Shown here: piece by piece, positions 359 through 46,500 of the stretch
Position numbering within the stretch: the stretch's first letter is position 1
Layout: every line of letters starts with the position of its first letter
NCBI GenBank assembly: GCA_028711065.1
Contig: JAQTSY010000007.1
Coordinates: forward strand, 1 to 50,872
Length of the DNA: 50,872 nt
DNA from: Minisyncoccota bacterium
Lineage (GTDB): Bacteria > Patescibacteriota > Minisyncoccia > Phycocordibacterales > JAQTLZ01
Direction: 5' to 3'
Program-made: the position numbers and the translations under genes
The notes under the pieces: model-generated
The model's database searches: none
Seen by the model: the letters and a program-made list of their open reading frames with translations, nothing else
What the model was told of the DNA's origin: nothing

Positions 359-387
359 CTTGCCTGATTTCCTGCTATACTAAAGTC

Positions 388-762
388 ATGAAAAACATAA
401 TTCAAAAATTGGCTTTTATCATCGCAGTAAGTTTCGGCGCACTTGTGCCAGTGTTGGTTCAAGCTGCAGCGGCAGTCTGTAAATCAAATGGGCAAGTAGT
501 GCCTTGTGGAAATATCGGCTGGCTCATTGGAGGAGTCTTTGGACTTGGAGGAATTTTCCTTCTCATAGCTCTCCTGGGAACCATTTTTTGGATTATGATG
601 CTCATTCATGCTGCTACTCATGATATCCCCAATAAACCTCTCTGGCTCCTTATTATTATTTTCGGTCATCTTCTCGGAGCGATCGTCTATTACTTCTCTG
701 TCAAAAAGAATATGTCTTCTGGTTCGAAAACACCTTCTTCTGGGGCATCCTCGACCACTTAA
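388..762 (+). CDS. Small membrane protein with PLDc_N-like hairpin domain
   Basis: IFWIMMLIHAATHDIPNKPLWLLIIIFGHLLGAIVYYF pattern; N-terminal signal-like segment; ATG 388 lies 6 nt after TG-C-TATACT. Confidence 0.7.
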   Translation: MKNIIQKLAFIIAVSFGALVPVLVQAAAAVCKSNGQVVPCGNIGWLIGGVFGLGGIFLLIALLGTIFWIMMLIHAATHDIPNKPLWLLIIIFGHLLGAIVYYFSVKKNMSSGSKTPSSGASSTT

Positions 763-775
763 TCTATAAAAATAG

Positions 776-813
776 GCGTCAAAAAACGCCTCAACAGGGG
801 CGTTTTTTGACGC
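776..813. terminator. Intrinsic terminator hairpin
   Basis: GCGTCAAAAAACGCC (776-790) / GGCGTTTTTTGACGC (799-813). Confidence 0.75.
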
Positions 814-823
814 ATCGTATCTA

Positions 824-852
824 TTGACTTTTTACCTAAAATATGCTAATAT
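824..852 (+). promoter_or_regulatory. sigma70 promoter of amidase gene
   Basis: TTGACT-17-TAATAT with TG extended -10. Confidence 0.7.
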
Positions 853-900
853 ACTAGTGGGCCTGTGGAGGGTCCTCGGGCAGGAGAAAGGAGGAGTCCT

Positions 901-1392: not shown

Positions 1393-1412
1393 ATCTTATT
1401 GTCGAGTTTAAA

Positions 1413-5852: not shown

Positions 5853-5888
5853 TTCGCATTTTTGAGAATTATTATCTATAATACAAGT

Positions 5889-6116
5889 ATGCATTTTACA
5901 CAAACATCTTATGTACGCAGTTTCGCTCTTCTTGGCGCCCTGACTGCTCTTACACCATTTCTTCATTTTCCGCGTGCTTGGAATGATGTCTTGCTTGTTA
6001 TCATCGGCCTTCTCGTCATCTTTCTCTCGTACACTCTTCGAGCTCAAAAAATGAGTGATTCTTCCAAGTTGCCACAACCTCCCGCAGACGGCGGAACTCA
6101 AAACTTGAATAACTAG
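5889..6116 (+). CDS. Small two-TM hypothetical protein
   Basis: Two hydrophobic segments; TATAAT (5877-5882) 6 nt before ATG 5889. Confidence 0.6.
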   Translation: MHFTQTSYVRSFALLGALTALTPFLHFPRAWNDVLLVIIGLLVIFLSYTLRAQKMSDSSKLPQPPADGGTQNLNN

Positions 6117-6186
6117 GCCTAGTTGAGCCTCTTGTTCATTCCTATCCCATGCGGGGTATTGCTTTTTGTTGTATACTATTTCCATT

Positions 6187-8127
6187 ATGGTGTCCTCTCA
6201 TACTGATCATAGCTCCTCTCCATCCCATGACTCCCATGGGCACCACGACTTTCTTAGAAAAAATGCATTCGATCCAGAGCGAGTGACCTATTTTGCCGAG
6301 ACTGATTCTCGCAATAAGAAAATAAAGTTTGGAATCAAAGCGAAAGACAGAACTCGCCATGTCTATGTTATTGGTAAGACGGGAATGGGGAAGTCCACCT
6401 GCCTTGAAAATATGGCCGTGCAAGATATTCAAAATGGCGAGGGTATGGCTTTTATTGATCCACACGGGAAAACTGCTGATCTTTTTCTTGAATATGTTCC
6501 GAAAGAGCGAATGAAGGACGTGCTGTATTTTGCGCCTTTCGATATGGAATATCCCGTGTCTTTCAATGTGATGGAAGACGTTGGTCCCGATAAACGCCAC
6601 TTGGTTTCAAACGGACTTATGAGCGCCTTCAAGAAAATTTGGGTGGATGCATGGAGCGCCCGAATGGAATACATTTTGAACAACATTCTTTTGGCACTTC
6701 TTGAATATCCGGATTCTACGCTTATTGGTGTAAACAGAATGCTTGCAGACAAGGATTATCGAAATGCAGTCGTTGCGAATGTGACCGACACTTCAGTGAA
6801 AGCATTTTGGCGGGATGAATTTGCGAAATATTCTGATAAATTCATGACCGAAGCGGGTGCGGCAATTCAGAACAAGATTGGACAATTCATTTCAAATCCG
6901 CTTGTGCGAAATATTATCGGCCAGCCGAAATCTACATTCGATCTCCGTAAGATGATGGATGAAAGAAAGATCATCATCATTAACCTCTCCAAAGGAAGAG
7001 TAGGGGAGTCAAACGCGAATCTCATCGGTTCGATGCTCATCACCAAAATTTATCTGGCTGCGATGAGCCGAGCGGATGTACCCGAGTCTGTTTTGAATAC
7101 ACTGCCCAATTTTTATCTCTATGTAGACGAATTTCAATCTTTTGCAAACGAATCTTTTGCCGATATTCTTTCCGAAGCTAGAAAATATAAACTGAACCTG
7201 ACAATGGCTCACCAGTACATCGAACAGATGTCGGAAGAAGTGCGTGCCGCAGTTTTCGGAAACGTAGGCAGTATGCTGGTGTTTCGGGTCGGAGCCTTTG
7301 ACGCTGAAGTTTTGGAGAAAGAATTTGCTCCGCAGTTTACCGCTGAAGATTTGGTGAATCTTGGGTTTGCTCAAATTTACATAAAACTTATGATCAACGG
7401 CGTAACCTCGTCGCCATTTTCCGCGACCACGTTGCCTCCGATAGCCAAGCCTCTTCGCTCACTTCGCGAAGAGATCATCGAATCATCGCGAAACACTTTC
7501 GCTCGTCCTCGAAGCGTAGTGGAGGAAGAAATACGCCGATGGCACGAGCCTGTGGGCAGACCGCAGCAAAAAGAAGTTGCCCCTCCAGAGCAAAGGCCTG
7601 TAACGACCTCTCCAAGACCTTCCCAGCCCCCTCTTCGTCCCGAATTTGCTTCCGCTTCTCGTCCTTCGCAACCTGCTCATGCCCCAGCTCCTAAAATGTC
7701 GGAAGCTCCTAAAGCTCCTCCTCGTCTTTCGGCTCCAGAGCACAATCCTACGATGGCAAAACAGGTGGAGAGGGAAACCGAGCTTCGCAAAGCAATGTCT
7801 CTCGCGTATTTAAAACCAGTGGCCCCAAAACCCCAGAAAAAGCCGAATGACCAGAATCTGAAAGATTTGCGCAATCTTTTGGCAACGCTTCAAAAAGAAA
7901 ATCCAACAGCTTCAAAAGAAGAAAAGAGAGTTGAGAATGTTCCTCCTCGCGCAGAGCAGAAACCCGCCTTTTCGGAAGCGACTCAACACAAGAGAGAGCC
8001 TGGAGAGATCCATTCTCATTCGACTCCGCCGGCTCCGTCAAAACCAGAGAAAAAAATTCCAAAAGAAGTTCCTGAGGATGTCCTTAGAAAACTCCTTCAT
8101 GTTAAACCGCCAGAGAATAATGCGTAA
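6187..8127 (+). CDS. VirD4/TraG/TraD-like coupling-protein ATPase with Pro-rich C-terminal tail
   Basis: RHVYVIGKTGMGKST Walker A, FIDPHG, YLYVDEFQSF Walker B, SEARKY, AHQYIEQ; start at ATG 6187 inferred. Confidence 0.85.
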   Translation: MVSSHTDHSSSPSHDSHGHHDFLRKNAFDPERVTYFAETDSRNKKIKFGIKAKDRTRHVYVIGKTGMGKSTCLENMAVQDIQNGEGMAFIDPHGKTADLFLEYVPKERMKDVLYFAPFDMEYPVSFNVMEDVGPDKRHLVSNGLMSAFKKIWVDAWSARMEYILNNILLALLEYPDSTLIGVNRMLADKDYRNAVVANVTDTSVKAFWRDEFAKYSDKFMTEAGAAIQNKIGQFISNPLVRNIIGQPKSTFDLRKMMDERKIIIINLSKGRVGESNANLIGSMLITKIYLAAMSRADVPESVLNTLPNFYLYVDEFQSFANESFADILSEARKYKLNLTMAHQYIEQMSEEVRAAVFGNVGSMLVFRVGAFDAEVLEKEFAPQFTAEDLVNLGFAQIYIKLMINGVTSSPFSATTLPPIAKPLRSLREEIIESSRNTFARPRSVVEEEIRRWHEPVGRPQQKEVAPPEQRPVTTSPRPSQPPLRPEFASASRPSQPAHAPAPKMSEAPKAPPRLSAPEHNPTMAKQVERETELRKAMSLAYLKPVAPKPQKKPNDQNLKDLRNLLATLQKENPTASKEEKRVENVPPRAEQKPAFSEATQHKREPGEIHSHSTPPAPSKPEKKIPKEVPEDVLRKLLHVKPPENNA

Positions 8128-19391: not shown

Positions 19392-20465
19392 TTAAATTCG
19401 GGGTTTTTTACTCATCTTGAATTTTTTTCCTATCTCTTTTTCTTTCTCTGCGATTGCAAGATCGTGCTCCGTCATAATACGTGCGAGTTTTTTGAAATTA
19501 GTCTTCGGTTTCCAGCCGAGAATGGATCGTGCTTTGGATGAATCACCAAGAAGAAGGTCTACTTCGTTTGGCCTATAATAGATTGGGTCGATCTCGATAA
19601 TTACTTTCCCAGTTTTTTTATCAATCCCTTTCGTATCAAGGCCATTTCCTTTCCAGATAAGTTCCATTCCCAAATTTCGAGCAACCTCTTCCGCAAACTC
19701 TTTTACAGTATGAGTCTCTCCGGTCGAAATAACAAAGTCATCTGGTTTTTTCTGTTGAAGGATCAGCCATATCGCTTCGACGTAATCTTTTGAATATCCC
19801 CAATCCCTCTTCGCCTCTATGTTACCCAAACGCAATACCTTTTGAGTGCCGACTTTAATCCTCGCTAATCCGGTGGTAATCTTTCTGGTAACGAAGTTTA
19901 CGCCGCGGCGTTCCGATTCATGATTGAATAAGATGCCATTTGAAGCGAACATATTGTAACCGGTGCGAAAGTTTTTTGTAATATAGAAAGCAAAGGTTTT
20001 AGATGCTCCGTAAGGGGATTGGGGATTGAAAGGTGTTTTCTCATTTTGGGGAATCTCGAGAACTTTTCCAAACATCTCGGAAGAACTGGCTTGATAAAAT
20101 TTTGCTTTGCTGCAGAGATGTTTCATCGATTCTAGTATTCGAAGCGGACCGAGCGCATTCACATCGGCAGTGAATTCAGGCACATCAAAACTGATCCCAA
20201 CATGGCTCTGTGCGCCGAGATTGTAAATCTCGTCGGGTTTAATTTCAGTAATTATTTTATTGATGTTGGTTGTGTCGGAGAGATCGCCATAGAGGGTGAC
20301 GAAATTTTTTTGGCCAGAAATATCATAGAGATGATCGATTCGGGCAGTATTGGGAATGCTGGAACGTCTCTGGACGCCGTATACTTTATAACCCTTCTCG
20401 AGCAGAAGTTCTGTGAGAAAAGAGCCGTCCTGTCCTGTTACCCCAAAAATAAGAGCCTTTTTCAT
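19392..20465 (-). CDS. gmd: GDP-mannose 4,6-dehydratase (copy 2)
   Basis: [46 protein letters not shown]; start MKKAL at 20465. Confidence 0.95.
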   Translation of the reverse strand: MKKALIFGVTGQDGSFLTELLLEKGYKVYGVQRRSSIPNTARIDHLYDISGQKNFVTLYGDLSDTTNINKIITEIKPDEIYNLGAQSHVGISFDVPEFTADVNALGPLRILESMKHLCSKAKFYQASSSEMFGKVLEIPQNEKTPFNPQSPYGASKTFAFYITKNFRTGYNMFASNGILFNHESERRGVNFVTRKITTGLARIKVGTQKVLRLGNIEAKRDWGYSKDYVEAIWLILQQKKPDDFVISTGETHTVKEFAEEVARNLGMELIWKGNGLDTKGIDKKTGKVIIEIDPIYYRPNEVDLLLGDSSKARSILGWKPKTNFKKLARIMTEHDLAIAEKEKEIGKKFKMSKKPRI

Positions 20466-20495
20466 GGTCCGGTTATTATATCTCATACATCATAA

Positions 20496-22600: not shown

Positions 22601-22846
22601 CTACCATTTACCAATTTTATCGGTAACTTTTTTCTTAAGTGACAGGTACGAACGAACAGCCTTTTCTTCGGCTTCGGGGGAGATCAGTCGTATGATTTCT
22701 TTTCCTAAAATTCGATATTGACCGCCCACTTTATTTGCGCGAATGAGACCTTTCTTGAGGAGTCTCTTCATTGTGCTTGTGCTTACGCGCAAGACTTTCT
22801 CCGTTTCTGCGGTTGTATAGACAGCATGAGGCTTTATTTCTTCCAT
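22601..22846 (-). CDS. HTH_17 (Xis/BldC-like) DNA-binding protein
   Basis: YTTAETEKVLRVSTSTMKRLLKKGLIRANKVGGQYRI. Confidence 0.85.
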   Translation of the reverse strand: MEEIKPHAVYTTAETEKVLRVSTSTMKRLLKKGLIRANKVGGQYRILGKEIIRLISPEAEEKAVRSYLSLKKKVTDKIGKW

Positions 22847-22852
22847 GCTTCT

Positions 22853-22880
22853 ATTGTATCAAAGTGTCAAAAAGTGTCAA
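22853..22880 (-). promoter_or_regulatory. Promoter TTGACA-16-TACAAT containing a 10-bp tandem repeat
   Basis: Plus strand AAAGTGTCAA x2 (22861-22880); ATG 6 nt after the -10. Confidence 0.72.
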
Positions 22881-22885
22881 AAGGT

Positions 22886-23819: not shown

Positions 23820-24854
23820 CTATTTTCCTTCTGCGAGTTTAAGATCTGCATCAACCATGATTTTTACGAGAGTTTTAAATCCGACTTCTGGTTTCCAGCC
23901 GAATGCTTTGTATGCTTTTGTCGCATCTCCAAGGAGCACGTCCACCTCTGCTGGACGGAAATAGCGCGGATCTATCTCGATAATTGTTTTTCCTGTCTTT
24001 TTATCCACACCTTTTTCTTCAAGACCTTTTCCATACCACTCAATTTCAAAGCCGAGGAGCTTCGCAGATTCTTCAACAAACTCTCTTACGCTGTGTGCCT
24101 CTCCTGTGGCGAGAAGAAAATCATCCGGTTTTTCTTCTTGAAGCATTTGCCACATTCCGTAGACAAAATCTTTTGCGTAGCCCCAGTCTCTTTTAGCGTC
24201 AAGATTTCCAAGAAAAAGTTTTTCATCTTTTCCGACTTTAATTCTCGAAAGTCCGCGAGTGATTTTTCTGGTCACGAATGTCTCTCCTCGGCGAGGGGAT
24301 TCGTGATTAAAAAGAATTCCATTGCAGGCGAAAAGTCCATAGCTTTCTCGATAGTTTTTGGTGATCCAGTATGCGTACACTTTTGCGCATCCGTACGGAG
24401 AGCGCGGATAGAAGGGCGTGGTCTCCTTAAGAGGGAGTTCAACTGCCTTTCCAAACATTTCGCTTGATGAAGCTTGATAAAACTTTGTTTTGATTCCAGT
24501 ATCTCGAATAGCATCGAGAATGCGAAGCGTTCCCAAACCATCGATGTCGCCCGTGTATTCCGGAATATCAAAACTGACCCGGACGTGGCTTTGCGCTCCA
24601 AGGTTGTAAATTTCATCCGGCTTTACTTTTTCTAGTATTCTATTTAAATTACTGTCGTCGCCGAGGTCTCCGTAGTGGAGAAGCAATCTCACTCCTCGTA
24701 TGTGCGGGTCTTGATAGAGATGTTCAATTCGTTCTGTATTGAAAGTGCTTGCGCGTCTTATAATTCCATGGACTTCGTATCCCTTTTCGAGAAGTAGTTC
24801 CGCGAGGTATGAACCATCCTGACCTGTGATTCCTGTAATAAGAGCGCGTTTCAT
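23820..24854 (-). CDS. gmd: GDP-mannose 4,6-dehydratase (copy 1)
   Basis: [48 protein letters not shown]. Confidence 0.96.
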
Positions 24855-24871
24855 AGAGTGCTTGTCGCTCC

Positions 24872-24900
24872 ATCGTATCCCGCTCTTTTTTCGATGTCAA
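24872..24900 (-). promoter_or_regulatory. Main promoter of glycan operon
   Basis: TTGACA-17-TACGAT, 17 nt before gmd ATG. Confidence 0.72.
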
Positions 24901-24950
24901 TCAATTTCTTCGGTTTTTTTGAAATTGAAGCCTGTGCTATAGTAGCTTTC

Positions 24951-27074
24951 ATGGAAACAAACAAAATTCTTCATCGAAGCATCCTAGTCGGCATTTTTGC
25001 ACTTCTTCTCATACCTTTTTTGGTTTTCAATTCTATGTTTTTTCCGTTTATCACAGGAAAAAACTTCGTCTTTCGCATTATTGTTGAGATAATTTTTTGT
25101 CTTTGGATTATTCTTATTTCTCGCGACAAAAGTTTTTTGCCTAAACGTTCAACACTTTTCTACGCTTTTACGGCATTTATCGTCGCAATCACTCTTGCGG
25201 ATTTTCTCGGAGTTGATCCGTATAGAAGTTTTTGGAGTGATTTCGAACGGATGGAGGGGCTTATTGCCCATCTTCATTTTTTCGCACTCTTTTTGGTCGC
25301 GGGTTCTGTATTCAATACTAAAAAATTGTGGACATATTTTTTCAATTCTGCGCTCGTGGTCAGTGTCGTGATGGCTTTCTATGGAATCTTTCAGCTTGCT
25401 GGCGTGTTCGAAATCCATCAAGGCAGTTCGCGTATCGATGGTCCGATTGGGAATTCCGCATATCTGGCCATCTATATGCTTTTCCATGTTTTCCTTGCGC
25501 TTTTTCTGCTTTTGCGTTCACGAGAGAGGCGAATGCAGATTGTGTATGGGGGAGTCGCGCTTCTCAATACTATAATTGTCTATTATACAGCTACTCGAGG
25601 GTCTATTTTGGGCCTCATTGGAGGTCTTTTCTTAACAGCTATTCTTATCGCAATTTTTGAAAAAGAAAGGCCGATATTAAAAAAGGTTTCAACTGGCGTG
25701 ATCGTAGCTATTGTTGCAGTTATTGTTCTCTTCTTTGCTTTGAGGAATCAGCCTTTTGTGAGAAATAGTCTTGTCCTCAATCGTTTCGCGACAATTTCTT
25801 GGACGGAGCAGACCACCGAATCTCGATTTTTGATTTGGAAGATGGCATATCAAGGTTGGAAAGAGCGCCCACTTTTCGGCTGGGGGCAAGATAATTTTAT
25901 TCTTGTTTTCCAAAAATATTATGATCCGAAAATGTGGAACCAAGAACCTTGGTTTGATCGGACTCATAATGTCGTCTTGGATTGGCTTATTGCAGGCGGA
26001 GCTTTTGGGTTTCTCACCTATATTTCTCTCTTTGTCGCATCTCTCTTCTGTATTTGGAAGAAGAAAACGATACTCTCTTTGGCTGATAAGGCCGTGCTGA
26101 CTGGGCTACTTGCTGCTTATTTCTGTCACAATCTTTTTGTGTTCGACAATCTCACGAGCTATCTTCTTTTTGTGTTTGTTTTGGCGTATTTCCATTTTCT
26201 TAGTCTGCAAGGGTCAGAAAACGCCGATGAGATTCAGACAAAATTTGGAGAAGGTCTGTCTCCCAATGTGCAATCAATTTTAATTCCGATTACGATTATC
26301 GCTCTGCCTATCTTGGTTTATTTTGCTAATGTGCCCCAAATACTTGCCAACACCTCTCTCATCAGAGCTATTTCCTATGAGAACGCTGATATTTCGAAGA
26401 GTCTCGATGCTTTTAAAGAATCAATTTCCTACAACACTTTCGGGAAACCGGAAACCCGCACTCAACTTTTAGAGAGTTCTTCTGCTGTCGCTGCGTCTAA
26501 TAGTCCGACTCCGCTCAAGCAGAGTTATCTCTCGTTTATCAAGAGTGAAATGGAAACACAGATACAAGAGGAGCCTCTTGATGCCCGCTATCCATATTTT
26601 CTCGGACAATTTTTAGATCATTTTGGATTACCGGCTTTGGCTCAAAAGAATTTTATGAAGGCTCTCTCTCTTTCTCCCAAAAAGCAGGATATCGTGATAG
26701 CCCTTGCGGTAAGTCTTTATAATGCCGGAGAGAAGGACAAAGCTTTTCTCACGATGAAACAAGCATTTGATCTTGATCCAGATAATGAAACTGCTCGACT
26801 TATTTATGCAACCCTAGCAATCTACTCGAGTAAAGACGACATCGTCAAAGATCTTATTCTCAATAAATACCACACCTATCTTGTCCCGGATGATAGGATC
26901 ATGACCGCATATATAAAGACTGGCCAGCTTAAGAAATATGTTGCTCTCGATACTGCATTTTTGACAGGGCAGATGAAAGCGGGATCTTTGAGTCAAGATG
27001 AGCTTCAAGCTATAAACACTGCACACCAAGAGTTCCAGAAGAAGATGGACGCCTACTCAAAGTCGAATCAATAA
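24951..27074 (+). CDS. O-antigen ligase (Wzy_C) family protein with TPR-like C-terminus
   Basis: Many TMs, RIDGPIGNSAYL, TATRG, RPLFGWG, WFDRTHN; start METNK at 24951 after TG-C-TATAGT. Confidence 0.87.
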   Translation: METNKILHRSILVGIFALLLIPFLVFNSMFFPFITGKNFVFRIIVEIIFCLWIILISRDKSFLPKRSTLFYAFTAFIVAITLADFLGVDPYRSFWSDFERMEGLIAHLHFFALFLVAGSVFNTKKLWTYFFNSALVVSVVMAFYGIFQLAGVFEIHQGSSRIDGPIGNSAYLAIYMLFHVFLALFLLLRSRERRMQIVYGGVALLNTIIVYYTATRGSILGLIGGLFLTAILIAIFEKERPILKKVSTGVIVAIVAVIVLFFALRNQPFVRNSLVLNRFATISWTEQTTESRFLIWKMAYQGWKERPLFGWGQDNFILVFQKYYDPKMWNQEPWFDRTHNVVLDWLIAGGAFGFLTYISLFVASLFCIWKKKTILSLADKAVLTGLLAAYFCHNLFVFDNLTSYLLFVFVLAYFHFLSLQGSENADEIQTKFGEGLSPNVQSILIPITIIALPILVYFANVPQILANTSLIRAISYENADISKSLDAFKESISYNTFGKPETRTQLLESSSAVAASNSPTPLKQSYLSFIKSEMETQIQEEPLDARYPYFLGQFLDHFGLPALAQKNFMKALSLSPKKQDIVIALAVSLYNAGEKDKAFLTMKQAFDLDPDNETARLIYATLAIYSSKDDIVKDLILNKYHTYLVPDDRIMTAYIKTGQLKKYVALDTAFLTGQMKAGSLSQDELQAINTAHQEFQKKMDAYSKSNQ

Positions 27075-27111
27075 ATTTCCTTGAGTGCTATTAGGGGCAA
27101 AAAGCAAACGC

Positions 27112-27178
27112 AAAACCCCTCCGAGGAGGGGGCTCACGTAGACATTCTTTTTGGGAACTAACTTTCGTTAACTCACAC
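27112..27178 (-). ncRNA. Candidate small RNA A (~67 nt)
   Basis: Promoter TTGACT-17-TACCAT with TG (27185-27213); GAAA-capped hairpin; terminal CCCCTC-CTCG-GAGGGG-TTTT; only a 3-codon ORF. Confidence 0.55.
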
Positions 27179-27252
27179 AACTGCATGGTAGCAAGAATTG
27201 GCTTAAAAGTCAAGTTTTTGTCGAATGCTGGCCAGAGTATATAATAAGAGTA

Positions 27253-27342
27253 TATTGTTTCGATATATAGTCGGCGGCTCTGCACTCACATATAAGACAT
27301 TATTTTGGAGCTAGCATCCGCCGACTATGTATCGACGCAATA
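27253..27342 (+). ncRNA. Candidate small RNA B / long stem-loop (strand uncertain)
   Basis: ~25-bp stem (27253-27277 with 27318-27342) around a 40-nt loop; TTGTCG-16-TATAAT (27218-27245) directly upstream. Confidence 0.5.
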
Positions 27343-27362
27343 ATTTAGCGCTAAGTGTCGCA

Positions 27363-27480
27363 AGTCAAAAGTATTTTTCTTGTGAAAAATCTTTCGACCC
27401 TGCCTCGCGCCGTCGCGCTCCGGCCTTGCGAAAGCTCCAAGTATTCGCTTTCTCACTCGTCCGCGCCTCGGATAGCATCT
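27363..27480. repeat. GC-rich REP-like intergenic element with imperfect hairpin
   Basis: AGTCAAAAGTATTTTTC-TTGT-GAAAAATCTTTCGACC hairpin followed by GC-rich CCTCGCGCCGTCGCGCTCC; only one copy in the window. Confidence 0.35.
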
Positions 27481-27506
27481 AAATTCTTGCATCGAAATGA
27501 TCGGTG

Positions 27507-28526: not shown

Positions 28527-28572
28527 AACTCCTTATTTTAAGGCCTCAAAAAGTGTGCTAGAATGGCCTCCT

Positions 28573-31077
28573 ATGTTTGAATCATTAAAGAAACTCTTTG
28601 GCGATCATTCCGGCAAGGCTTTGCAGGCTATTTCTCCTTTCGTCGCTCAAATCAATGGCTTTGAGGCTGAAATTAAGGCTCTGTCTGACGAGCAATTGAA
28701 GGCGAAAACGCTGGAGTTTAAAGAGCGAATCGCCAAGGGCGATTCGCTCGATAGTTTGCTCCCTGAAGCTTTTGCCTGTGTTCGAGAAGCATCCCGCCGA
28801 ACCCTCGGCCAGCGCCATTTCGATGTTCAGCTCATGGGAGGCATCATTTTGCATCAAGGTAAAATTGCCGAAATGAAAACTGGAGAAGGAAAGACCCTCG
28901 TCGCAACTCTTCCTGCCTATCTGAACGCTCTCACGGGAAAAGGTGTGAGCGTGGTTACTGTGAACGACTACCTCTCTCGCCGTGACGCGGTTTGGATGGG
29001 ACAAATTTATAATGCGCTCGGACTTTCTGTGGGTGTGGTAAATCACGATGTATCCTATTTGTACGATCCTGCCCATCGCGAACTCGATAAAGAAGTTGAT
29101 CAGGTCGGCGCATTCAAAGTCGTCCATGAATTTTTACGCCCCTGTACTCGTCACGAAGCGTACATGGCCGATATCACGTACGGCACAAATAATGAATACG
29201 GTTTTGATTATCTTCGCGACAATATTGAATATGAGACAGACAAGCTTCGACAGCGAGAATTTAATTATGCAATTGTTGACGAAATAGACTCGATCCTTAT
29301 CGATGAAGCCCGAACTCCGCTCATTATTTCCGCTCCAACTCAAGAATCTGAAAATTTGTACGCAAAATTTGCCCAGATTGCTGGTATGCTTCAAAAAGAT
29401 TCTGATTATACCGTGGACGAAAAATTAAAAGCAGCCACACTTACCGACGAAGGAATTACCAAAGCAGAAAAAGTGCTTGGTATCGAAAATATTTACACGG
29501 AAAAGGGAATTAAATTTGTGCATCATTTGGAAACTGCTGTCCGAGCAAAAGCGCTTTTCGAACGCGACAAAGAATATGTGGTGAAAGATGGCGAGGTCAT
29601 CATTGTCGATGAATTTACTGGACGCATGCAACCGGGAAGACGCTGGTCAGAGGGGCTTCATCAGGCAGTCGAGGCGAAAGAAGGCCTTTCTGTACAAAAA
29701 GAGTCTCGAACATTTGCCTCTATTACGTTCCAAAATTATTTCCGTCTCTACAAAAAGCTTTCTGGGATGACCGGAACAGCGCTCACCTCGGGCGAGGAAT
29801 TTTATAAAGTGTACGGACTTGAAGTGGTTTCTATTCCAACGAACAAACCGCTTGCTCGAAAAGATTTGAACGATCTTATTTTCCAAACCGAGACAGGGAA
29901 ATTTAAAGCAGTTGCAAAAGTGGTGAAGGAATTGCACGCAAAAGGCGAACCGGTACTTGTCGGTACAGTTTCTATCGAGAAAAATGAAGTGTTGTCGCAA
30001 TATTTAAAACACGAAGGAGTACCTCATGAAGTTTTGAACGCGAAAAATCACGAACGCGAAGGAGAAATTGTTGCTCAAGCAGGAAGACGTGGAGCAGTGA
30101 CGGTGGCAACGAACATGGCGGGTCGAGGGGTTGATATTAAACTTGGGGGCGCTCCGGCAACAGAAGAAGCATACGAAGCAGTGAAAGCTCTTGGTGGAAT
30201 GCATGTCATCGGCACGGAACGACACGAAGCGCGAAGAATTGATAACCAGCTTCGAGGCCGTTCGGGAAGACAGGGAGATCCTGGAGCGACGCAGTTTTTC
30301 GTTTCTCTTGAAGATTCGCTTATGAGAATTTTTGCATCAGACACTATCAAAAAAATGATGGGACGTCTCGGTGTGAAAGAAGATGAGCCGATTGAGAATT
30401 CTCTCATTACTCGCTCGCTTGAATCTGCCCAGAAAAAAATCGAAGGGTTCAATTTCGATGCTCGAAAACACGTGCTTGAATACGACGATGTGCTGAATCT
30501 TCAAAGAAAAACGGTCTATGAAAGACGCCGAAAAATTCTTTTGGGCAAAAGGGAAGATGTTGAAGCGGAACTCGAAGCCCTTATCGCTGGAGATGAAAAA
30601 TTGATCGCACTCGTGGAGGAAAAGAAAAAATCATTCCCTGAAGATGAATTTTATACTGTGGTGCGGAGAATGTTTCTTCAGACCATTGATATGTTCTGGG
30701 TGGAACATTTGGAAGTGATGGAGTATACGCGAGGGAGCGTGAATTTGCGCGCCTACGGCCAGCGCGATCCGCTTGTTGAGTACAAGAAAGAAGGACTTCG
30801 CTTGTTTAAAGAAATGCAGGAGGCGATTAATGTGCAGATTATTTCTCTTCTCGGCTCGCTTCAGACCGGCGCATTTTCAAAAGAAGAAGCGGAACTTCGA
30901 GCCATTCAGAAACAGGCAAAAGAGATTGGAGGCTCTGATTCTGCGGGAGTCGGAATGGCTTTCACCTCAGCAAAACCGGTCATCAAAAACGCTGAAGGCA
31001 AAAAAATCGGCAGGAATGATCCATGTTATTGTGGGTCAGGTAAAAAGTACAAAAATTGCCACGGTAAAGGACAATAA
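28573..31077 (+). CDS. secA: Preprotein translocase subunit SecA
   Basis: AEMKTGEGKT, VDEIDSILIDEARTPL, ATNMAGRG, QLRGRSGRQGDPG, SEC-C GRNDPCYCGSGKKYKNCHG. Confidence 0.98.
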   Translation: MFESLKKLFGDHSGKALQAISPFVAQINGFEAEIKALSDEQLKAKTLEFKERIAKGDSLDSLLPEAFACVREASRRTLGQRHFDVQLMGGIILHQGKIAEMKTGEGKTLVATLPAYLNALTGKGVSVVTVNDYLSRRDAVWMGQIYNALGLSVGVVNHDVSYLYDPAHRELDKEVDQVGAFKVVHEFLRPCTRHEAYMADITYGTNNEYGFDYLRDNIEYETDKLRQREFNYAIVDEIDSILIDEARTPLIISAPTQESENLYAKFAQIAGMLQKDSDYTVDEKLKAATLTDEGITKAEKVLGIENIYTEKGIKFVHHLETAVRAKALFERDKEYVVKDGEVIIVDEFTGRMQPGRRWSEGLHQAVEAKEGLSVQKESRTFASITFQNYFRLYKKLSGMTGTALTSGEEFYKVYGLEVVSIPTNKPLARKDLNDLIFQTETGKFKAVAKVVKELHAKGEPVLVGTVSIEKNEVLSQYLKHEGVPHEVLNAKNHEREGEIVAQAGRRGAVTVATNMAGRGVDIKLGGAPATEEAYEAVKALGGMHVIGTERHEARRIDNQLRGRSGRQGDPGATQFFVSLEDSLMRIFASDTIKKMMGRLGVKEDEPIENSLITRSLESAQKKIEGFNFDARKHVLEYDDVLNLQRKTVYERRRKILLGKREDVEAELEALIAGDEKLIALVEEKKKSFPEDEFYTVVRRMFLQTIDMFWVEHLEVMEYTRGSVNLRAYGQRDPLVEYKKEGLRLFKEMQEAINVQIISLLGSLQTGAFSKEEAELRAIQKQAKEIGGSDSAGVGMAFTSAKPVIKNAEGKKIGRNDPCYCGSGKKYKNCHGKGQ

Positions 31078-32016: not shown

Positions 32017-32058
32017 AGCAAACGAAAAATCTCCCTTTCGGGAGATTTTTCGTTTGCT
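32017..32058. terminator. 19-bp perfect hairpin terminator
   Basis: AGCAAACGAAAAATCTCCC-TTTC-GGGAGATTTTTCGTTTGCT. Confidence 0.8.
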
Positions 32059-32077
32059 GTGTTAGTATGAAATTATA

Positions 32078-32740
32078 ATGACCGAAAAAGAAATCGATGT
32101 GTTGGCGAAAAAGATTTGGGACTATCACCATATGAATCAGCCGCTTCAAAAAGCTCAAGTGATTATCGTTTTGGGTAATCGAGATACGCGAGTCGCAGAG
32201 TATGCTGCACAACTATATCTGGACGGGTATGCTCCACTCTTGCTTTGTGCAGGTTCCGGCTCAATTCATAATCACAAACTAGGACGAGAACAATTTGTTG
32301 GCACCACTGAAGCAGAAGTTTTTGCAGATGTTGCAATGAAGATGGGTGTTCGGAAAGATGCCATCATCATCGAAAATGAATCACAAAATACTGGCCAAAA
32401 TTACGAGTTTGCGATCAAGAAATTAAAAGAACGGCATCTGAATCCAAAACGGATAATCTTGGTTCAGAAGCCTTACATGGAAAGGCGGACATATGCTACG
32501 GGTAAAGTGTGGCTGCCTCAAACTCAGCTCATCGTTACTTCCCCTCAAATACCTTTCGAGGCATATTTTAATGAAACTAACACCAAAGAAAGAGTGATCA
32601 ATACAATCGTGGGAGATTTGCAGCGCATCAGAGAATATCCGAAAAAAGGTTTTGCGATAGAACAGGAAATTCCCAAAGATGTTTGGGAAGCGTATGAACA
32701 GCTAGTAAAGGCTGGATTTACAAAACATTTGATAAAATGA
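32078..32740 (+). CDS. YdcF/DUF218 family protein
   Basis: IIVLG, EAEVFA, ESQNTGQN, VQKPYMERR. Confidence 0.88.
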   Translation: MTEKEIDVLAKKIWDYHHMNQPLQKAQVIIVLGNRDTRVAEYAAQLYLDGYAPLLLCAGSGSIHNHKLGREQFVGTTEAEVFADVAMKMGVRKDAIIIENESQNTGQNYEFAIKKLKERHLNPKRIILVQKPYMERRTYATGKVWLPQTQLIVTSPQIPFEAYFNETNTKERVINTIVGDLQRIREYPKKGFAIEQEIPKDVWEAYEQLVKAGFTKHLIK

Positions 32741-37259: not shown

Positions 37260-37290
37260 AGATTTTGGGGAATCTGGTATAATAGACTCT

Positions 37291-37695
37291 ATGATTCCTG
37301 CATATAAGAAGATTTTTAACTTTTTTGGCAAAGTCGAGGATCGTATTCGTTTTAATTTCAGCCGGCACCCAGTCCCTTATAGTTTAGTAGCCGGCGTATT
37401 CATTGTTCTTTTTTGGAAGGGGATTGAAGATACCGCAAGTCTTTTCCCAACGCTCACCGGCCCGTTTCTCATTCTTGTGAGTGTTCCGGTGCTTCTTCTG
37501 ACTGGTGTGTTTGTGTCTTTTTTCATTACCGATCGCGTCATTTTGTCAGGACTTAAAAAAGAAGAAAAAGTTGTTGCAGAGACGGAAGTTGAAGTAAAAC
37601 AGGAGGACATTCTCCTAAAAAAAGTAGTAGAGAGAATGGATCAAATTGATAAAGAAGTACGGCATTTAGACGAACATTTTCATAAACAAAAATAA
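37291..37695 (+). CDS. Hypothetical membrane protein with C-terminal coiled coil
   Basis: Two TMs then charged helix; TG-G-TATAAT 7 nt before ATG. Confidence 0.7.
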   Translation: MIPAYKKIFNFFGKVEDRIRFNFSRHPVPYSLVAGVFIVLFWKGIEDTASLFPTLTGPFLILVSVPVLLLTGVFVSFFITDRVILSGLKKEEKVVAETEVEVKQEDILLKKVVERMDQIDKEVRHLDEHFHKQK

Positions 37696-40275: not shown

Positions 40276-40298
40276 AGCGTGCCTAGCCGGCACGCTTT
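40274..40298. terminator. Bidirectional terminator
   Basis: AAAGCGTGCC-TAGCC-GGCACGCTTT between convergent genes. Confidence 0.75.
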
Positions 40299-40825
40299 TC
40301 CATCTCTCTTACTATCTGCTCTTCTACTTCTTTTCTTGCTTTCCTAATCGCCACGAGAGCTTGTTGGTACGAGTCTCTTGCTCGCACTTCGGCAATCCTT
40401 TCAATAATATCCGCCTCTCCCTCGTGGAAAAGGAATTGTCCTAAGTTATACTCTTTCCTTAGGGTATAGATGCGCGGACCTCCATATACAGCCACAGGCA
40501 TTACATCAATTATATGCCTGGTTTTGATAACTCGAAGCCAGGAGTGTGGACCTCCAGCTCTTTGGAATTTGCCGTCTTTCCAGACAGGGAAGCCAAATCG
40601 CCCGTCTCTTTTTTCCAGTTCATCAGAGGCAAATAAATCAGCGTGTAAATGGCACTGTCCATCTACCGCCCATGTTTTTGCTTCTGGGTGTCTTGCTAGC
40701 ATTTCCGTCGCCATTTTGACGAAGTAAAATGCTCCCATCGTCTCAACGGAGAAATGATTTCCAAACTGACTGACAGCTTTTGCGTAGGTAAAGTACTCGT
40801 CTACCACTCGCTCGATCGTCGTCAT
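40283..40825 (-). CDS. Orphan protein with possible transglutaminase/papain-like Cys-His-Asp triad
   Basis: GQCHLHA..HSWL..IIDV; start MTTIE at 40825 with GGGGAGG SD; promoter TTGACA-16-TACTAT (40867-40894). Confidence 0.6.
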   Translation of the reverse strand: MTTIERVVDEYFTYAKAVSQFGNHFSVETMGAFYFVKMATEMLARHPEAKTWAVDGQCHLHADLFASDELEKRDGRFGFPVWKDGKFQRAGGPHSWLRVIKTRHIIDVMPVAVYGGPRIYTLRKEYNLGQFLFHEGEADIIERIAEVRARDSYQQALVAIRKARKEVEEQIVREMEKRAG

Positions 40826-40938
40826 GACTCTTTTCCTCCCCTGTGGTTGGTTGAAAACTGTGCGTAATAGTAAACAGAAATATGTTTTTGTCAAATTAAA
40901 TGCAAAATTGAAATAATACGCTATAATGGCTGAATTGT

Positions 40939-42384
40939 ATGGAAAAAAAGTACTACACCACTGTTGGGCTTGAAGTGCATGCTGAACTCAAGACGCAGAC
41001 AAAAATGTTCTGCAATTCTAAGAACGATCCGGACGAAGAGCGCCCGAATGTGAATATCTGCCCTGTCTGTATGGGGCATCCGGGGACGCTTCCTGTCGTG
41101 AATAAAGAAGCGGTCAAACACGTTTTGAAAGTTGGTGTTGCTGTCGGCGGGGAACTCGCGGATTTCACTGAATTTGACCGTAAAAATTATTTCTATCCTG
41201 ATATTCCAAAAGGCTATCAGATTTCTCAATATAAATATCCGCTTGTTTCTGGCGGGGAACTTGCTGGGGTGAAATTGACTCGCGTGCATCTTGAAGAAGA
41301 TACGGGGACTTCAAAACACGAGGAGGGAGATTATTCACTTGTGGATTTCAATCGCGCAGGAGTGCCACTTATGGAACTTGTAACCGAACCAGTGATTCAT
41401 TCTGCTGAAGAAGCGACAAATTTCGCGAAAGAATTACAACTCCTTCTCCGCACACTTCATGCAGGTGAAGCGAATATGGAAAAAGGGGAGATGCGGGTGG
41501 AAGCAAACATTTCTGTATCGGATGATCCAGGAAAATTCGGCACGAAAGTTGAAGTGAAAAATCTCAACTCATTCCGTTCTGTTGGGCGAGCTATTGAATA
41601 CGAAGTTGAACGCCATATTCGGATGATTGAGAAGGGAGAAAAAATTGAGCAAGAAACACGTGGTTGGGACGAGACGAAAGAAACAACCTATTCGCAAAGA
41701 AAAAAAGAAGATTCGCACGATTATCGCTATTTTCCAGACCCAGATATTCCCAAACTTTGGATTTCTGAAGTCCCAGAATTCTCTCGCGAGAATTTAGCGA
41801 AAGAAATGCCTGAATTGCCGTGGATAAAGCGCGAGAAATATAAAAAATATAAACTTAAGCCTGAAGAAATCGAGGTTTCTTTACAGCATCCGACTCTCGG
41901 AGACTATATAGAGGAACTTTCTCGAGAATTTAAAGAAGATATCGAGCATGTAAGGCTTGCGGCGAACTATCTGTACTCTGATATTTTGGGAATTTTGAAA
42001 TCTGCGACTAAAGCGGGAGAGACTTTTGATTTTTCGAAATCAGAGAAGATGATAACACCGAAACAACTCGCAGAGATCACTAGAATGCTGAAATCGGGTG
42101 AAATTTCTTCTCGCGGAGCGAAAGATATCTTGGCAGTGATCATGAAAGAGGGCGGAGATCCAAAAAAGATTGCAGTCGATATGGGTTTGATACAGAAAAG
42201 CGACCCCGAAGCACTCAAAAAAATTATTGAGAAAATTATTGCCGATAATCCGAAAGCTGTTTCTGAATACAAAGCAGGCAAGCTTAATAATCTCCAATTT
42301 CTCATCGGTCAGGCGATGAAAGAGACAAAAGGCTCGGCAAATCCAGCGCTCCTCAAAGAACTTTTTGAAAAAGCTCTCGCGTAA
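40939..42384 (+). CDS. gatB: Asp/Glu-tRNA amidotransferase subunit B
   Basis: GLEVH, FDRKNYFYPDIPKGYQISQ, HLEED, NRAGVPLMEL, YRYFPDPD. Confidence 0.97.
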   Translation: MEKKYYTTVGLEVHAELKTQTKMFCNSKNDPDEERPNVNICPVCMGHPGTLPVVNKEAVKHVLKVGVAVGGELADFTEFDRKNYFYPDIPKGYQISQYKYPLVSGGELAGVKLTRVHLEEDTGTSKHEEGDYSLVDFNRAGVPLMELVTEPVIHSAEEATNFAKELQLLLRTLHAGEANMEKGEMRVEANISVSDDPGKFGTKVEVKNLNSFRSVGRAIEYEVERHIRMIEKGEKIEQETRGWDETKETTYSQRKKEDSHDYRYFPDPDIPKLWISEVPEFSRENLAKEMPELPWIKREKYKKYKLKPEEIEVSLQHPTLGDYIEELSREFKEDIEHVRLAANYLYSDILGILKSATKAGETFDFSKSEKMITPKQLAEITRMLKSGEISSRGAKDILAVIMKEGGDPKKIAVDMGLIQKSDPEALKKIIEKIIADNPKAVSEYKAGKLNNLQFLIGQAMKETKGSANPALLKELFEKALA

Positions 42385-42454
42385 GCGCGATTTCGCGTTT
42401 TCCCCAGCTCCTTTTTTCCCTCTCTGTTATACTAAATAGAGCAAGGTTTTCGTA

Positions 42455-43447
42455 ATGAAAACTATGAAGCGAATTTTTTCTCACACAAAAATCGTCGTCA
42501 GTGTTTTTTTTCTGCTCTCTTTTTTCTGCGCCGGTATTTTTCTTCCGACTCCAGGGCTTGCGATGTCCACTGAAAATTACCAGATTAACAATGACGTATT
42601 AAACGTCGGTGGAGGGTATTCCTCTTCGGATTTATATCAATTAGAAGACAGTATCGGCGATCCTCGTGAAGATATTATTATTGGAACGCATTCTATACCA
42701 GCAACTCCCACACCTCACGCACCAACTCCCACACCAAAACCAAGACGTATCGTTGTAAGGGCTGGAGGTGGCGGAGGCGGAGGAGGTGGGGGAAGATTAT
42801 CTATCCCCCCTTCATCTCTTTTGTCCAATGTTGCTTCCTCTGGTGGAGGGGGCGGTTGTGGCACCACCACTCAATCTGGCTCTTCTCCGTTTTCTCGAGT
42901 ACTTCAGGCAGGGAGTCAGGGTGCTGATGTTGTCGCTCTTCAAACATTTCTTGAAACCAAAAAGATTCTTGTTATGCCGGCGGGGACTTCGAAAGGATTT
43001 TTTGGAGGTCTGACGAAGCTTGCGTTAACACAGTATCAAAAGAGCATCGGCCTTCCTCCAGTAGGTATTTTTGGGCCACTTACAAGGGCACAAGTTGAGA
43101 AGGAATCTGTCTACGGAGGGAGTATTTCTGTTGCAATACCCTGTGTCACGCCTCTTCCTTCTATAAAATTATTTACTCGATTTATGGTTATGGGTGATAC
43201 TGGAGACGAAGTGAAGATGCTCCAAATATTTTTGAATAAACATGGGTTTCCAGTTGCTCTTTCCGGCGCCGGTTCTTTAGGAAAAGAAACTACGATTTTC
43301 GATCAGGCTACGAAAACTGCTCTCATGAAATTACAAGCGGCTCATTCGGCAGAGATTGTCGTCCCGCAAAATTTGCCGGGGCCAACAGGCATCTTTGGTG
43401 ACTATTCCAAAAAATACGCAAACGGAGTGTTGCTCAAGGGTCTCTAA
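42455..43447 (+). CDS. Secreted protein with two PG_binding_1-like domains and Pro/Gly linkers
   Basis: Signal peptide; LQAGSQGADVVALQTFL..GFFGGLTK..YQ..GIFGPLTR and MGDTGDEVKMLQIFLN; poly-Gly run. Confidence 0.85.
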   Translation: MKTMKRIFSHTKIVVSVFFLLSFFCAGIFLPTPGLAMSTENYQINNDVLNVGGGYSSSDLYQLEDSIGDPREDIIIGTHSIPATPTPHAPTPTPKPRRIVVRAGGGGGGGGGGRLSIPPSSLLSNVASSGGGGGCGTTTQSGSSPFSRVLQAGSQGADVVALQTFLETKKILVMPAGTSKGFFGGLTKLALTQYQKSIGLPPVGIFGPLTRAQVEKESVYGGSISVAIPCVTPLPSIKLFTRFMVMGDTGDEVKMLQIFLNKHGFPVALSGAGSLGKETTIFDQATKTALMKLQAAHSAEIVVPQNLPGPTGIFGDYSKKYANGVLLKGL

Positions 43448-43506
43448 AACCTAAAAAAAGAGTTATACACAGGGTTTTTTTGAAAGTTGATTTATAATTA
43501 TACCGA

Positions 43507-46500
43507 ATGAAATCAAGAACCTTTTCAAAAGCTGGTTCTCTTTTCTTAGCTTTCGCTCTTTTGGCAAAAGCGCTCCTTGACCGTATTCCTTTTTTTGGCG
43601 AGAAAGCAACTCCGCTCGCGAAAAAGGCGGATTTTCCGTTCGGGTTGGATATAAAAAATCTTCCGATTCAACAGTACACAAACACCTCTACATTTTCTGT
43701 ACGGGCTTTTCCAGAATCATCTCTTCCTCCCTCAACACTTCCTCCTTTCACCGCGAAGCTTTCCGCGCTTATCGGAAACACTTTTGAAAATATACTTTCC
43801 TTCACTGCCACTCCCGTTTACGCAACGGCGAATTTCAATAAAGAAATTAATTATCAAGCAAAGCTTCTGGATGCAAGCAGTACTCCTGTCGTGGACGGAA
43901 ATTATAATGTCCGATTCAGCCTGTACACTGCGCCTACCGGCGGCGAACCGATTTGGACAGAAAGTTGGTGCCAATCTCCTGATGGAGGGACAACGTGTGA
44001 TGGAACAGGGGATGATAATCGTGTTTCTGTTTCGGGTGGTTTATTTACGACTCGTCTCGGAAGTATTGCTTCTATCGAGAGCGTTGATTTCAATCAGGTG
44101 CTGTATCTCGGCGTTACCATTGGCGGTTCTGACACAATACCTACGTGGGATGTGGAAATGTCTCCGAGGAAAAAACTCACCGCTTCGGTCGCGTCTCTTG
44201 TGGGCGGAGGTTCAGAGCCTGGGGGGGCATGCGGTTCGTTTCAATTTAATAACAATGGCGATCTTGCTGGTGTTGGAAATTATGGAGTGTGTACTCATAG
44301 CGCTGCCATCGGTTTTTGCGCTGGCAATGGTGGCATCACAGGATTTGATAATATGGTTTTTGGTTCGAATGCCGCTGGTAACGAAGGCACATTCTCCGGA
44401 TGGAACAATGCTATTCTGGGCTCTTGCGCCGCATACTATGGCTTCACAGGTTCTTGTAACACTATCTTGGGCGCTTCAGCGGGCTTTTGCGGAGTAGCCG
44501 GATCTTGCAACTTTATTGCTGGAGTGAGAGCTTGGGGGGGAGATACAAATGGGACGACGGGATATAACAACTCTGTCATTGGTTATCAGGCTGGTTACTC
44601 TGGAGTATGTGGAAATAATAATTTTATCGGGGGTACGTCTGCTGGAGCAGGCTGGGTTTCAGGAAAGATCGGGAAAAATAGCGTAGCGATCGGTACTGAA
44701 GCCGGCTACTGCGGATTCGGCGGCGGGGGTTCTATGGGAGACAGTTTTTATTCCGGTGACAATAATGTGGCGATTGGATATCAGGCAGGTTACTACGGAG
44801 TCTTTGGCATTAACAACTCTATCCTCGGCGCCGGCGCTGGATATTGCGGAATATGTGGCAAGGGCAACACTATCATTGGCCGATACGCATGGGGTGGAGA
44901 TGAGACTGGACAAGGGGGCGGTGAAGGAAATGTGGTCATCGGAAATAAAGCTGGCTTCTGCGGGATTGATGGTTTCCACAATATCGTAGAAGGTTTTCAG
45001 GCCGGCTACTGCGGTCTCTGCGGTAATGGGAATGTTATTCTAGGAAATAAGGCATGGTCAGATGGTGCCTCAGCTGGTGGTCGAGGCAACCTTGTGTTCG
45101 GAAATCACGCAGGCACCGTTGGTGTTTGTGGCGACTATAACACGATCATCGGCCACTGCGCTGCCTATTCTGGTATCACCGGCGGAAATAACTTCATCGC
45201 TGGTACTTCCGCCGGCTATTCTGGTGTCTCTGGCCAAAACAATTTTGTCGGTGGCGCCTGTGCTGCGTATTACGGTCTTTCCGGTCAGGATAACTTTATC
45301 GGTGGTACTTGTGTGGCATTCTGTGGTCTTGGAGGTTCCAACAATATTATTAATGGTACACAGGCTTGGGCTGGCGCAAGCAACACTGTAGATGGCAGCC
45401 TCCCAAATAAGAATACTATCTCCTACCAATCTGGTACTGGTTACAGTGTGAATACAGTTTATAGCCTTGCCGATGGTAATGGTGATGCAAAAATTCTCGT
45501 TACCTCTATTGGATTTACGGGGGGCATTAATGATTTTATTGTTCTGAATGGTGGTTCAGGATATTCAGCGGACGATTACCACACTGTTATAGGGGGTGAC
45601 AATAATGCTTCGCTTAGCTTCACTCCTGTGTCTGCTTCTGCTCCCGGTGGCTCGAACATCGTACTCGGAACGCTCGCTGGCTATTGCGGACTTACCGGCG
45701 ACAGCAACACTATCCTTGGCCGGCAAGCCGCTTTTTGCGGAATCTGCGGGAGCAATAACTTTATCGGCGGAACTTCAGCGGGAGGAAATTGGGGAAGCGG
45801 AAGAGATGGTTCATTTAATACACTTATCGGATATCAGGCCGGGCTTTGCGGTCTGACAAATAGCGGATGCGAAGGTACCGCCATCGGAAATACTATTTTG
45901 GGTTATCAAGCAGTTGGGGACGGCGAAAGTGACATACAAGGTTCATACAATACGGTACTTGGAAGACAGGCCGGCTACTGCGGAGTGGGCGGATGGAATA
46001 ACTTTATTGGAGGTTCGTATGCATGGGGCGGAGATACAAGCTCGCATGTCGGTTCCGATAACGTTTCCCTTGGAACATACTCGGGATACTTCGGCGTTGG
46101 CGGATCCCAAAATATTCTCCTCGGATATCAGGCCGGCTACAATAGCGTTGACGGTTCATGGAACTCGGTCATCGGAGCGAGCGCCGGTTTTTGTGGAGTC
46201 TGCGGAGATAATAACTCGATCATGGGAACGTGTGCTGGAGGCGATTGGCAAGTCGGACGAAGAGGTTCGAACAACGTCATCATGGGAACGAATGCCGGAC
46301 TTTACGGTTTCGGTGGCGGAGCCGTGCAGGGCGAAAATGATTATAGTTTGAATTCAGGAGATCAAAACGTGGCGATCGGCGCATGCGCCGGTTACTTTGG
46401 AATTTCTGGTATCAACAACTTCGTTGGTGGTGCAGGCGCCGGCTATTGCGGAGTCTGCGGAAATGGAAATACGATTCTCGGACGCTTTGCGTGGGGAGGT

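Follow-up and report, generated by a model that had tools for sequence, protein, structure and literature searches.

The transcription units of an ultra-small Minisyncoccota bacterium (Paceibacteria, in the candidate phyla radiation), as read in a contig of 50,872 nucleotides (nt; hereafter the window) and in the genome to which it belongs, commonly open with a TAnnnT hexamer placed 6-9 nt before an ATG start codon. We consider it probable, and hold with good confidence on the strength of the DNA sequence, that these boxes are −10 elements of the sigma-70 type standing at leaderless distance, and that the mRNAs of about half of the conserved transcription-unit heads (hereafter heads) would be leaderless or nearly so. 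The window corresponds to contig C4 in a genome (G000) of 0.97 Mb and 31 contigs, with 44% G+C and 99.4% completeness, in which a simple codon-usage caller, with the first ATG taken as the start, gave a set of 884 genes. Throughout, the gap denotes the number of nt between the end of the −10 hexamer and the ATG, and comparisons were made with a same-genus sister genome (G002; ~87% DNA identity), which was used whole and aligned with G000 at 555 gene starts, each taken with 150 nt of flank on either side, as well as with a further relative (G001).

Before the first ATG of 859 open reading frames (ORFs), TAnnnT occurs at frequencies of 0.13, 0.07, 0.08, and 0.06 at gaps of 6, 7, 8, and 9 nt, and at ~0.025 elsewhere, so that the positional peak which the first-pass annotation had predicted for a genome-wide motif search upstream of starts is indeed found, highest at gap 6 and above shuffled sequence. 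The extended form, TGnTAnnnT, stands at gap 6-9 before the 551 heads 82 times, as against 2.6 ± 1.5 times in dinucleotide-preserving shuffles (31-fold); at gaps of 13-40, 41-100, and 101-220 before the same heads, the observed and shuffled counts are 36 and 17, 60 and 35, and 48 and 40, respectively, and the leaderless distance holds 57% of the excess extended motifs. When the heads are aligned on the hexamer, T (54%) and G (57%) appear at −3/−2 and T (56%) and T (50%) at −23/−22, the latter corresponding to a 17-bp spacer, and control hexamers taken from coding DNA carry neither the TG nor the −35 signal. The boxes behave as extended −10 elements of the sigma-70 kind, with TG one base before the hexamer (−15/−14) and a weak −35.

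The arrangement is specific to ATG. A box at gap 6, 7, or 8 followed by an ATG that begins an ORF of 100 or more codons was counted 50, 35, and 17 times, respectively, the means for other codons being 1.4, 6.1, and 1.4; leaderless GTG or TTG starts are not above background in G000 or G002 (box counts at gaps 6, 7, and 8 of 2, 8, and 2 for GTG and of 1, 4, and 1 for TTG), and the ATG-only enrichment is repeated in G002. Among 186 conserved leaderless-type genes, the gap is 6, 7, 8, and 9 nt in 83, 46, 37, and 20 cases, with 129 of the 186 at 6-7; the canonical distance from −10 to +1 is 6 nt. At 20 of the 121 leaderless-type heads that follow a gene on the same strand (e.g., 388 and 32078), a terminator-like hairpin ends 18-70 nt before the ATG, which makes read-through from upstream unlikely at these heads and leaves space only for a promoter between terminator and start codon.

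Comparison of 159 leaderless-type heads with G002 gives identities of 0.91/0.96/0.95 for the T/A/T of the hexamer, whereas TAnnnT hexamers from the same intergenic regions, taken as controls, reach 0.76/0.78/0.83; the TG is identical at 0.84/0.87, the −35 zone at 0.79-0.84, the ATG at 0.97-0.99, and the spacer from −5 to −1 at 0.71-0.79, as at third codon positions. The box is retained in 138 of the 159 heads (87%) compared with 324 of 563 controls (58%; Fisher p = 9e-13), and 111 of 152 gaps have kept their length, the remainder being mostly shifted by 1-2 nt within 6-10. For several genes, among them secA and the gene starting at 37291, the upstream DNA has been swapped for unrelated sequence and a −10 box again lies 6-8 nt from the ATG. 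Purifying selection acts on the boxes, and the spacer evolves neutrally.

From the motif, its position and statistics, its specificity for ATG, its conservation, and the loss of the anti-Shine-Dalgarno sequence (anti-SD) described below, we infer where transcription starts and how translation begins. TAnnnT would be the −10 of housekeeping promoters of the sigma-70 type, mostly extended (TGnTAnnnT) and with a weak −35; RNA polymerase would start on the A of the ATG or ~0-3 nt upstream; and the ribosome and initiator tRNA would bind the 5'-terminal AUG directly, without Shine-Dalgarno (SD) pairing. Such pairing is unavailable because the 16S rRNA of the whole order is without CCUCC, and the 6-9 nt between −10 and ATG leave no space for an SD-bearing leader on leaderless-type transcripts. 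A further quarter of the genes, those starting within 12 nt of an upstream stop codon, would probably be translated by coupling or re-initiation.

As regards the anti-SD, the window starts with the final 132 nt of a 16S gene, the remainder of which is absent from the assembly. In its 3' end (96-132, + strand; Rfam alignment, model positions 1388-1533), helix 45 is intact and is followed by GGAAUAUUUCAAUU instead of the usual bacterial GGAUCACCUCCUUU, with no CCUCC. The call for G000 is based on this 132-nt tail plus the tails of relatives: CCUCC is absent from all 14 order-mates with a readable 16S tail, and, among genomes sampled elsewhere in the class, TCACCTCCTT is kept in 10 and lost in 14 from other orders. 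An SD of a new kind, complementary to the altered tail (GAAAT or TGAAA), was considered and set aside, there being no enrichment of it before starts. The gene for ribosomal protein uL1 gave no PF00687 match in this 99.4%-complete genome, whereas all 14 control genomes match, and no bS21 gene (PF01165) was found in G000. Thermus, Deinococcus, and Corynebacterium, all lineages with many leaderless genes, likewise lack bS21 in the control set. In several order-mates (loci L011, L012, L013, and L015), the 16S gene measures 2.2-2.9 kb and contains large insertions, which are familiar in the candidate phyla radiation (CPR).

The share of genes that are arranged in this way is best judged from divergent genes, which each need a promoter of their own and therefore provide the cleanest denominator. 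Conserved divergent genes (score >20 and alignable in G002; n = 99) have a box at gap 6-9 in 53.5% of cases as against a null of 9.8%, and an SD-like motif in 1%; those that lack a counterpart in G002 (n = 67) have the box in 12% against a null of 9%, hence essentially never, and an SD-like motif in 25%. After correction, the leaderless-type share comes to 49-52% of conserved divergent heads and ~32% of all divergent heads, and off-target gap windows yield 9% where 38-54% is observed at the leaderless distance. The assertion of the first-pass annotation that most heads look leaderless must thus be toned down: such heads are common, with 11 of ~20 in the window, but "most" is too strong for ~50% of conserved divergent heads. 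The leaderless arrangement is found at about half of core heads and in about a quarter of all genes (about 170-200). Sorted by start type, 226 genes carry a box at gap 6-9 (~60 expected by chance), 58 a box at gap 10-12 (near chance), 218 are classed as coupled, their start lying no more than 12 nt from the stop codon of the gene before, 64 are SD-like, and 313 are none of these and A-rich at −8 to −4. This last class, ~35% of genes without leaderless-like box, coupling, or SD, is not rescued by downstream alternative ATGs, which work in only 9 of the 313.

Many internal genes abut or overlap, as had been claimed: the 653 same-strand neighbour pairs comprise 29 ATGA overlaps, 9 one-nt overlaps, and 126 gaps of 0-10 nt. 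The idea that every gene has its own leaderless promoter was rejected, the extended box being present in only 2.6-4% of genes within 12 nt of an upstream stop, and the TAnnnT signal ahead of closely packed genes comes mostly from the upstream TAA stop itself, with A at position 3 in 56% and TG and −35 weak or absent. Genes 13-60 nt behind their neighbour often do have a leaderless-type promoter of their own (corrected share 32-45%; e.g., 20465 and 37291).

Within the window, our tally gave ~20 heads, of which ~11 are of the leaderless type. Each TAnnnT that the first-pass annotation had placed 6-9 nt before one of 11 starts was read again directly, and the counts are exactly as given in all 11; the TGn extension, which it had ascribed to several, is present at 7 of them. 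By chance, TAnnnT falls in a four-position window at ~8-10% of starts, and the probability of at least 11 out of 20 heads at p = 0.10 is 7e-7. In what follows, sites lie on the + strand unless marked otherwise. A small membrane protein (PLDc_N; 373-390) has TGC-TATACT (376-381) 6 nt before its ATG at 388, conserved in G002 with a gap of 7. At murD, the head of the mur operon (2469-2488), TGC-TAGTAT (2472-2477) stands 8 nt before ATG 2486; the box is the same in three genomes, and the gap lengthens, being 8 nt in G000, 10 in G002, and 12 in G001 (L039, L043), through insertions in an ATAT-rich spacer, which may amount to a tunable, very short leader. A 75-amino-acid ORF with no Pfam match (5853-5891) is preceded by TTCGCA-18-TATAAT (5877-5882), 6 nt from ATG 5889 and conserved in G002, and a VirD4/TraG-like coupling ATPase (6172-6189) by TATACT (6172-6177), 9 nt from ATG 6187 (or by TACTAT at 7 nt), with box and spacer identical in G002 and G001. 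The GDP-mannose 4,6-dehydratase gene gmd (20463-20480, − strand) has TATAAT (20480-20475) 9 nt before ATG 20465, this promoter being internal to a same-strand block of glycan genes. An HTH_17 regulator (22844-22880, − strand) shows TTGACA-16-TGA-TACAAT (22858-22853), 6 nt from ATG 22846, the G002 counterpart being TATAAT with a gap of 7; across the −35 and spacer of this promoter (22853-22890), TTTTGACAC occurs twice in tandem, and the TTTTGACAC repeat may be an autoregulatory operator of the HTH gene.

A TPR protein resembling Wzy_C/O-antigen ligases (24935-24953) follows with TGC-TATAGT (24938-24943), 7 nt from ATG 24951 and conserved in G002, and secA (28556-28575) with TGC-TAGAAT (28559-28564), 8 nt from ATG 28573; box, spacer, and ATG of secA are identical in G002, where the DNA upstream of the box is unrelated. 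A DUF218 protein (32060-32080) has TGT-TAGTAT (32063-32068) 9 nt before ATG 32078, with a long terminator hairpin ending just before the box. At a gene for a 134-amino-acid protein (37275-37293), TGG-TATAAT (37278-37283) lies 7 nt from ATG 37291, and the flanks in G002 are non-homologous, yet GGTATAAT, the 7 nt, and the ATG are kept. Finally, a giant ORF of >2454 amino acids that runs past the window end (43493-43509) carries TATAAT (43493-43498) 8 nt before ATG 43507. In SecA, Gmd (GDP_Man_Dehyd at residue 5), MurD, and the HTH protein, the Pfam profile starts at residues 4-10, so the ATGs of these four are taken as true N-termini. Terminator hairpins at 317-345 and 32028-32059 stop only a few nt short of the following gene's extended −10 box (ATG 388 and ATG 32078), with terminator and promoter fitting into ~40 nt. 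Between the ligase-like gene and the next gene, 430 nt (27075-27504) are free of ORFs, and promoter-like and terminator-like sites lie there on both strands at 27116-27131 and 27185-27263.

Other window heads are built differently. A short-leader head at 40922-40941 (+) has TATAAT 11 nt before ATG 40939; two leadered heads have TATACT 21 nt before ATG 42455 (42428-42457, +) and TTGACA-17-TACGAT 17 nt before ATG 24854 (24852-24900, −); and no obvious box is seen at the heads at 27507, 33468, and 9977 (− strand).

Could the hexamer be read by the ribosome rather than by RNA polymerase? TAnnnT might be an mRNA element, namely an AU-rich standby or S1-binding site before the AUG that replaces the SD on transcripts started far upstream. 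A protein with four S1 domains is encoded, the genes without box, coupling, or SD are A-rich at −8 to −4, and packed internal genes also peak in TAnnnT at gaps 6-9; however, that internal peak is mostly the TAA stop of the upstream gene and the extended form is present in only 2.6%, the heads carry TG at −15/−14 and TTG at 17-bp spacing, which are sigma-70 signals in DNA, an RNA standby site needs neither an exact spacing of 6-7 nt nor the exclusion of GTG and TTG, and terminators right upstream of some boxes speak against long leaders. We regard an mRNA element as very unlikely. That the whole pattern is functionless, produced by AT-rich sequence between genes, by stop codons, or by the choice of start codons, seems to us barely credible: TAnnnT is admittedly poor in information, a consensus scan of the window equals its shuffles, and the internal signal consists partly of stop codons, but such an artefact does not accord with the 31-fold excess over shuffles at gap 6-9, the low off-target rate, the Fisher p-value for box conservation, or the restriction to ATG.

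An alternative closer to leaderless initiation accepts the promoters as real and holds that leaders of 1-5 nt are handled by the 30S subunit as leadered mRNAs and not by the classic leaderless route. It can draw on the 37 and 20 of the 186 core leaderless-type genes whose gap is 8 and 9 nt, respectively, on some genes with a gap of 10, on the murD gaps of 8, 10, and 12 nt, and on the 11-nt gap at 40939, but the mode lies at 6-7 nt, where 129 of the 186 core cases fall, the exclusive use of ATG is what a requirement for a 5'-terminal AUG predicts, and leaders of up to 5 nt act like leaderless mRNAs in the systems studied. We judge it unlikely.

The reading of leaderless or nearly leaderless mRNAs made from sigma-70-type promoters has nonetheless several observations to contend with. 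The +1 is placed by promoter geometry alone, gaps of 8-10 nt and the growth of the murD gap may mean leaders of 1-5 nt and not strictly leaderless mRNAs, and leadered, SD-independent initiation is possible too, because a 425-amino-acid protein with four S1 domains is encoded (C21:19922-20914). The simple gene caller and its first-ATG starts make the denominators noisy. In the window, a generic scan for two hexamers (TTGACA/TATAAT) returned no more matches than in shuffles and was passed by only 2 of the 11 sites; for this reason, the case is built on the position of the box and not on the count of motifs. The leaderless arrangement is also missing from half of the conserved heads and from almost all accessory ones. 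These points weigh against the reading. The first-pass annotation had proposed that initiation relies on leaderless starts plus translational coupling, matching the loss of the anti-SD. Promoter geometry, ATG-only use, conservation, the order-wide anti-SD loss, and an SD frequency of 1% in core genes uphold that proposal, which falls short with respect to the ~35% of genes unaccounted for, the 7% with GGAGG, and the loose link to the anti-SD. A strict dependence of leaderless use on the loss of the anti-SD is weakened by anti-SD-positive Paceibacteria, with about half the density of such starts and almost no SD.

The relatives were surveyed in 16 genomes, of which 35-160 kb each was sampled, and these small samples are indicative only. 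Even in anti-SD-positive relatives (G050, G065, G081, G042, and G058; loci L130-L149), the SD index is 0-0.02. Per 100 kb, starts with an extended box at leaderless distance from the ATG number 4.8 where the anti-SD is kept and 5.5 in other orders that have lost it; the figure rises to 10.3 for this order and to 10.5-11.4 for this genus. The survey thus suggests a leaderless habit that would be class-wide and strongest in this order, and SD disuse seems older than anti-SD loss in the Paceibacteria, because anti-SD-positive members show almost no SD motifs.

An exception to leaderless starts and coupling is the presence of a GGAGG class in an anti-SD-less genome. GGAGG or AGGAG lies 5-9 nt before the ATG of 62-64 genes (~7%), with a sharp positional peak. 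These genes have a mean G+C of 0.50, compared with 0.44 for all genes, and are mostly strain-specific, 51 of 62 being without an alignable G002 ortholog; in the 11 that have one, the 5-mer is identical in all 11, with flanks 73-79% identical. Core and accessory genes differ accordingly, with leaderless-type starts in 186 of 424 and 40 of 231 (p = 3e-12) and SD-like starts in 12 of 424 and 52 of 231 (p = 2e-15), respectively. Sampled proteins of the class are orphans or divergent enzymes (AIR-synthase-like, PRA-CH, metallo-beta-lactamase fold, and NUDIX). The window holds one SD-led accessory cassette (40283-40840, − strand), in which GGGGAGG stands 9 nt before ATG 40825 of a 180-amino-acid orphan with its own terminator (40298-40274) and a GC content of 0.47; it sits in a slot (40276-40941) between two conserved genes, and the gene at 40283-40825 is absent from G002, which has two other SD-led genes there. 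Bin contamination was rejected as the source of the SD-led genes, since they intersperse with core genes on large contigs and occupy this syntenic slot. A hidden second rRNA operon is unlikely because a closed single-contig relative, with one anti-SD-less 16S, shows the same SD-like enrichment. Tentatively, and with more doubt than conviction, we raise the possibility of two initiation regimes, in which core genes would be leaderless or coupled and fast-turnover, GC-richer accessory genes, placed in variable slots among the core genes, would be initiated via GGAGG. This element, kept in 11 of 11 orthologs and on that count under selection, would be read by something besides the canonical 16S tail; the candidates are a different segment of rRNA, some protein, or a different ribosome in or by which the genes would be expressed.

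Paceibacteria make up a very large uncultured share of bacterial diversity, and how their ribosomes find start codons after anti-SD loss is unstated in the searchable literature. About half of the conserved operons being built for leaderless mRNAs would be a concrete and testable answer to this question. For gene calling in such genomes, it argues for a promoter-at-ATG model of starts and not an SD model, and it is relevant to future expression work in CPR bacteria. SD disuse before anti-SD loss, as suggested by the class-level comparison, would be a useful order of events for ribosome reduction. Our literature search found no paper on leaderless mRNAs in CPR, Patescibacteria, Parcubacteria, or Saccharibacteria; the mechanism is known elsewhere and the anti-SD loss of the clade is published, and it is the link of both that was not found in the searchable literature.

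With regard to known systems, a Parcubacteria subgroup without anti-SD and without uL1 has been reported, in which SD helices are judged unlikely to form; leaderless mRNAs go unmentioned in that paper, and no substitute mode of initiation is stated (Tsurumaki, Saito, Tomita, and Kanai, 2022, RNA 28:1041; PMC9297842). Our genome fits this published subgroup because CCUCC(U) and uL1 are both missing, and it is of CPR size at 0.97 Mb. Translational coupling is termination-reinitiation at overlapping stop and start codons (ATGA, TAATG), and the same overlaps or proximity are seen here, from sequence alone. SD-poor initiation is also known from Bacteroidota, in which the anti-SD is kept but sequestered by bS21 among other proteins and mRNAs are mostly leadered; like them, this genome has core genes without SD and A-rich sequence before the start codon, and unlike them it has lost the anti-SD, and no bS21 was found. 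The leaderless-mRNA route itself is familiar from Actinobacteria, Deinococcus-Thermus, and archaea, and the "group C" genome type of GeneMarkS-2 is likewise close; mycobacteria also use GTG at leaderless starts. For Mycobacterium tuberculosis, a leaderless transcriptome is attributed to Cortes et al. (2013), as cited in PMC12641261. As in Actinobacteria and Deinococcus-Thermus, we see a −10 TAnnnT ~6-7 nt before the start and no SD, involving roughly one gene in four, or between a third and half of all transcription units. Those lineages, however, keep a functional anti-SD and use SD for leadered genes; here, only ATG is enriched, and the promoters are mainly of the extended −10 form. The finding therefore extends a known kind of system, the mechanism itself not being new, to a genome whose order has lost the anti-SD.

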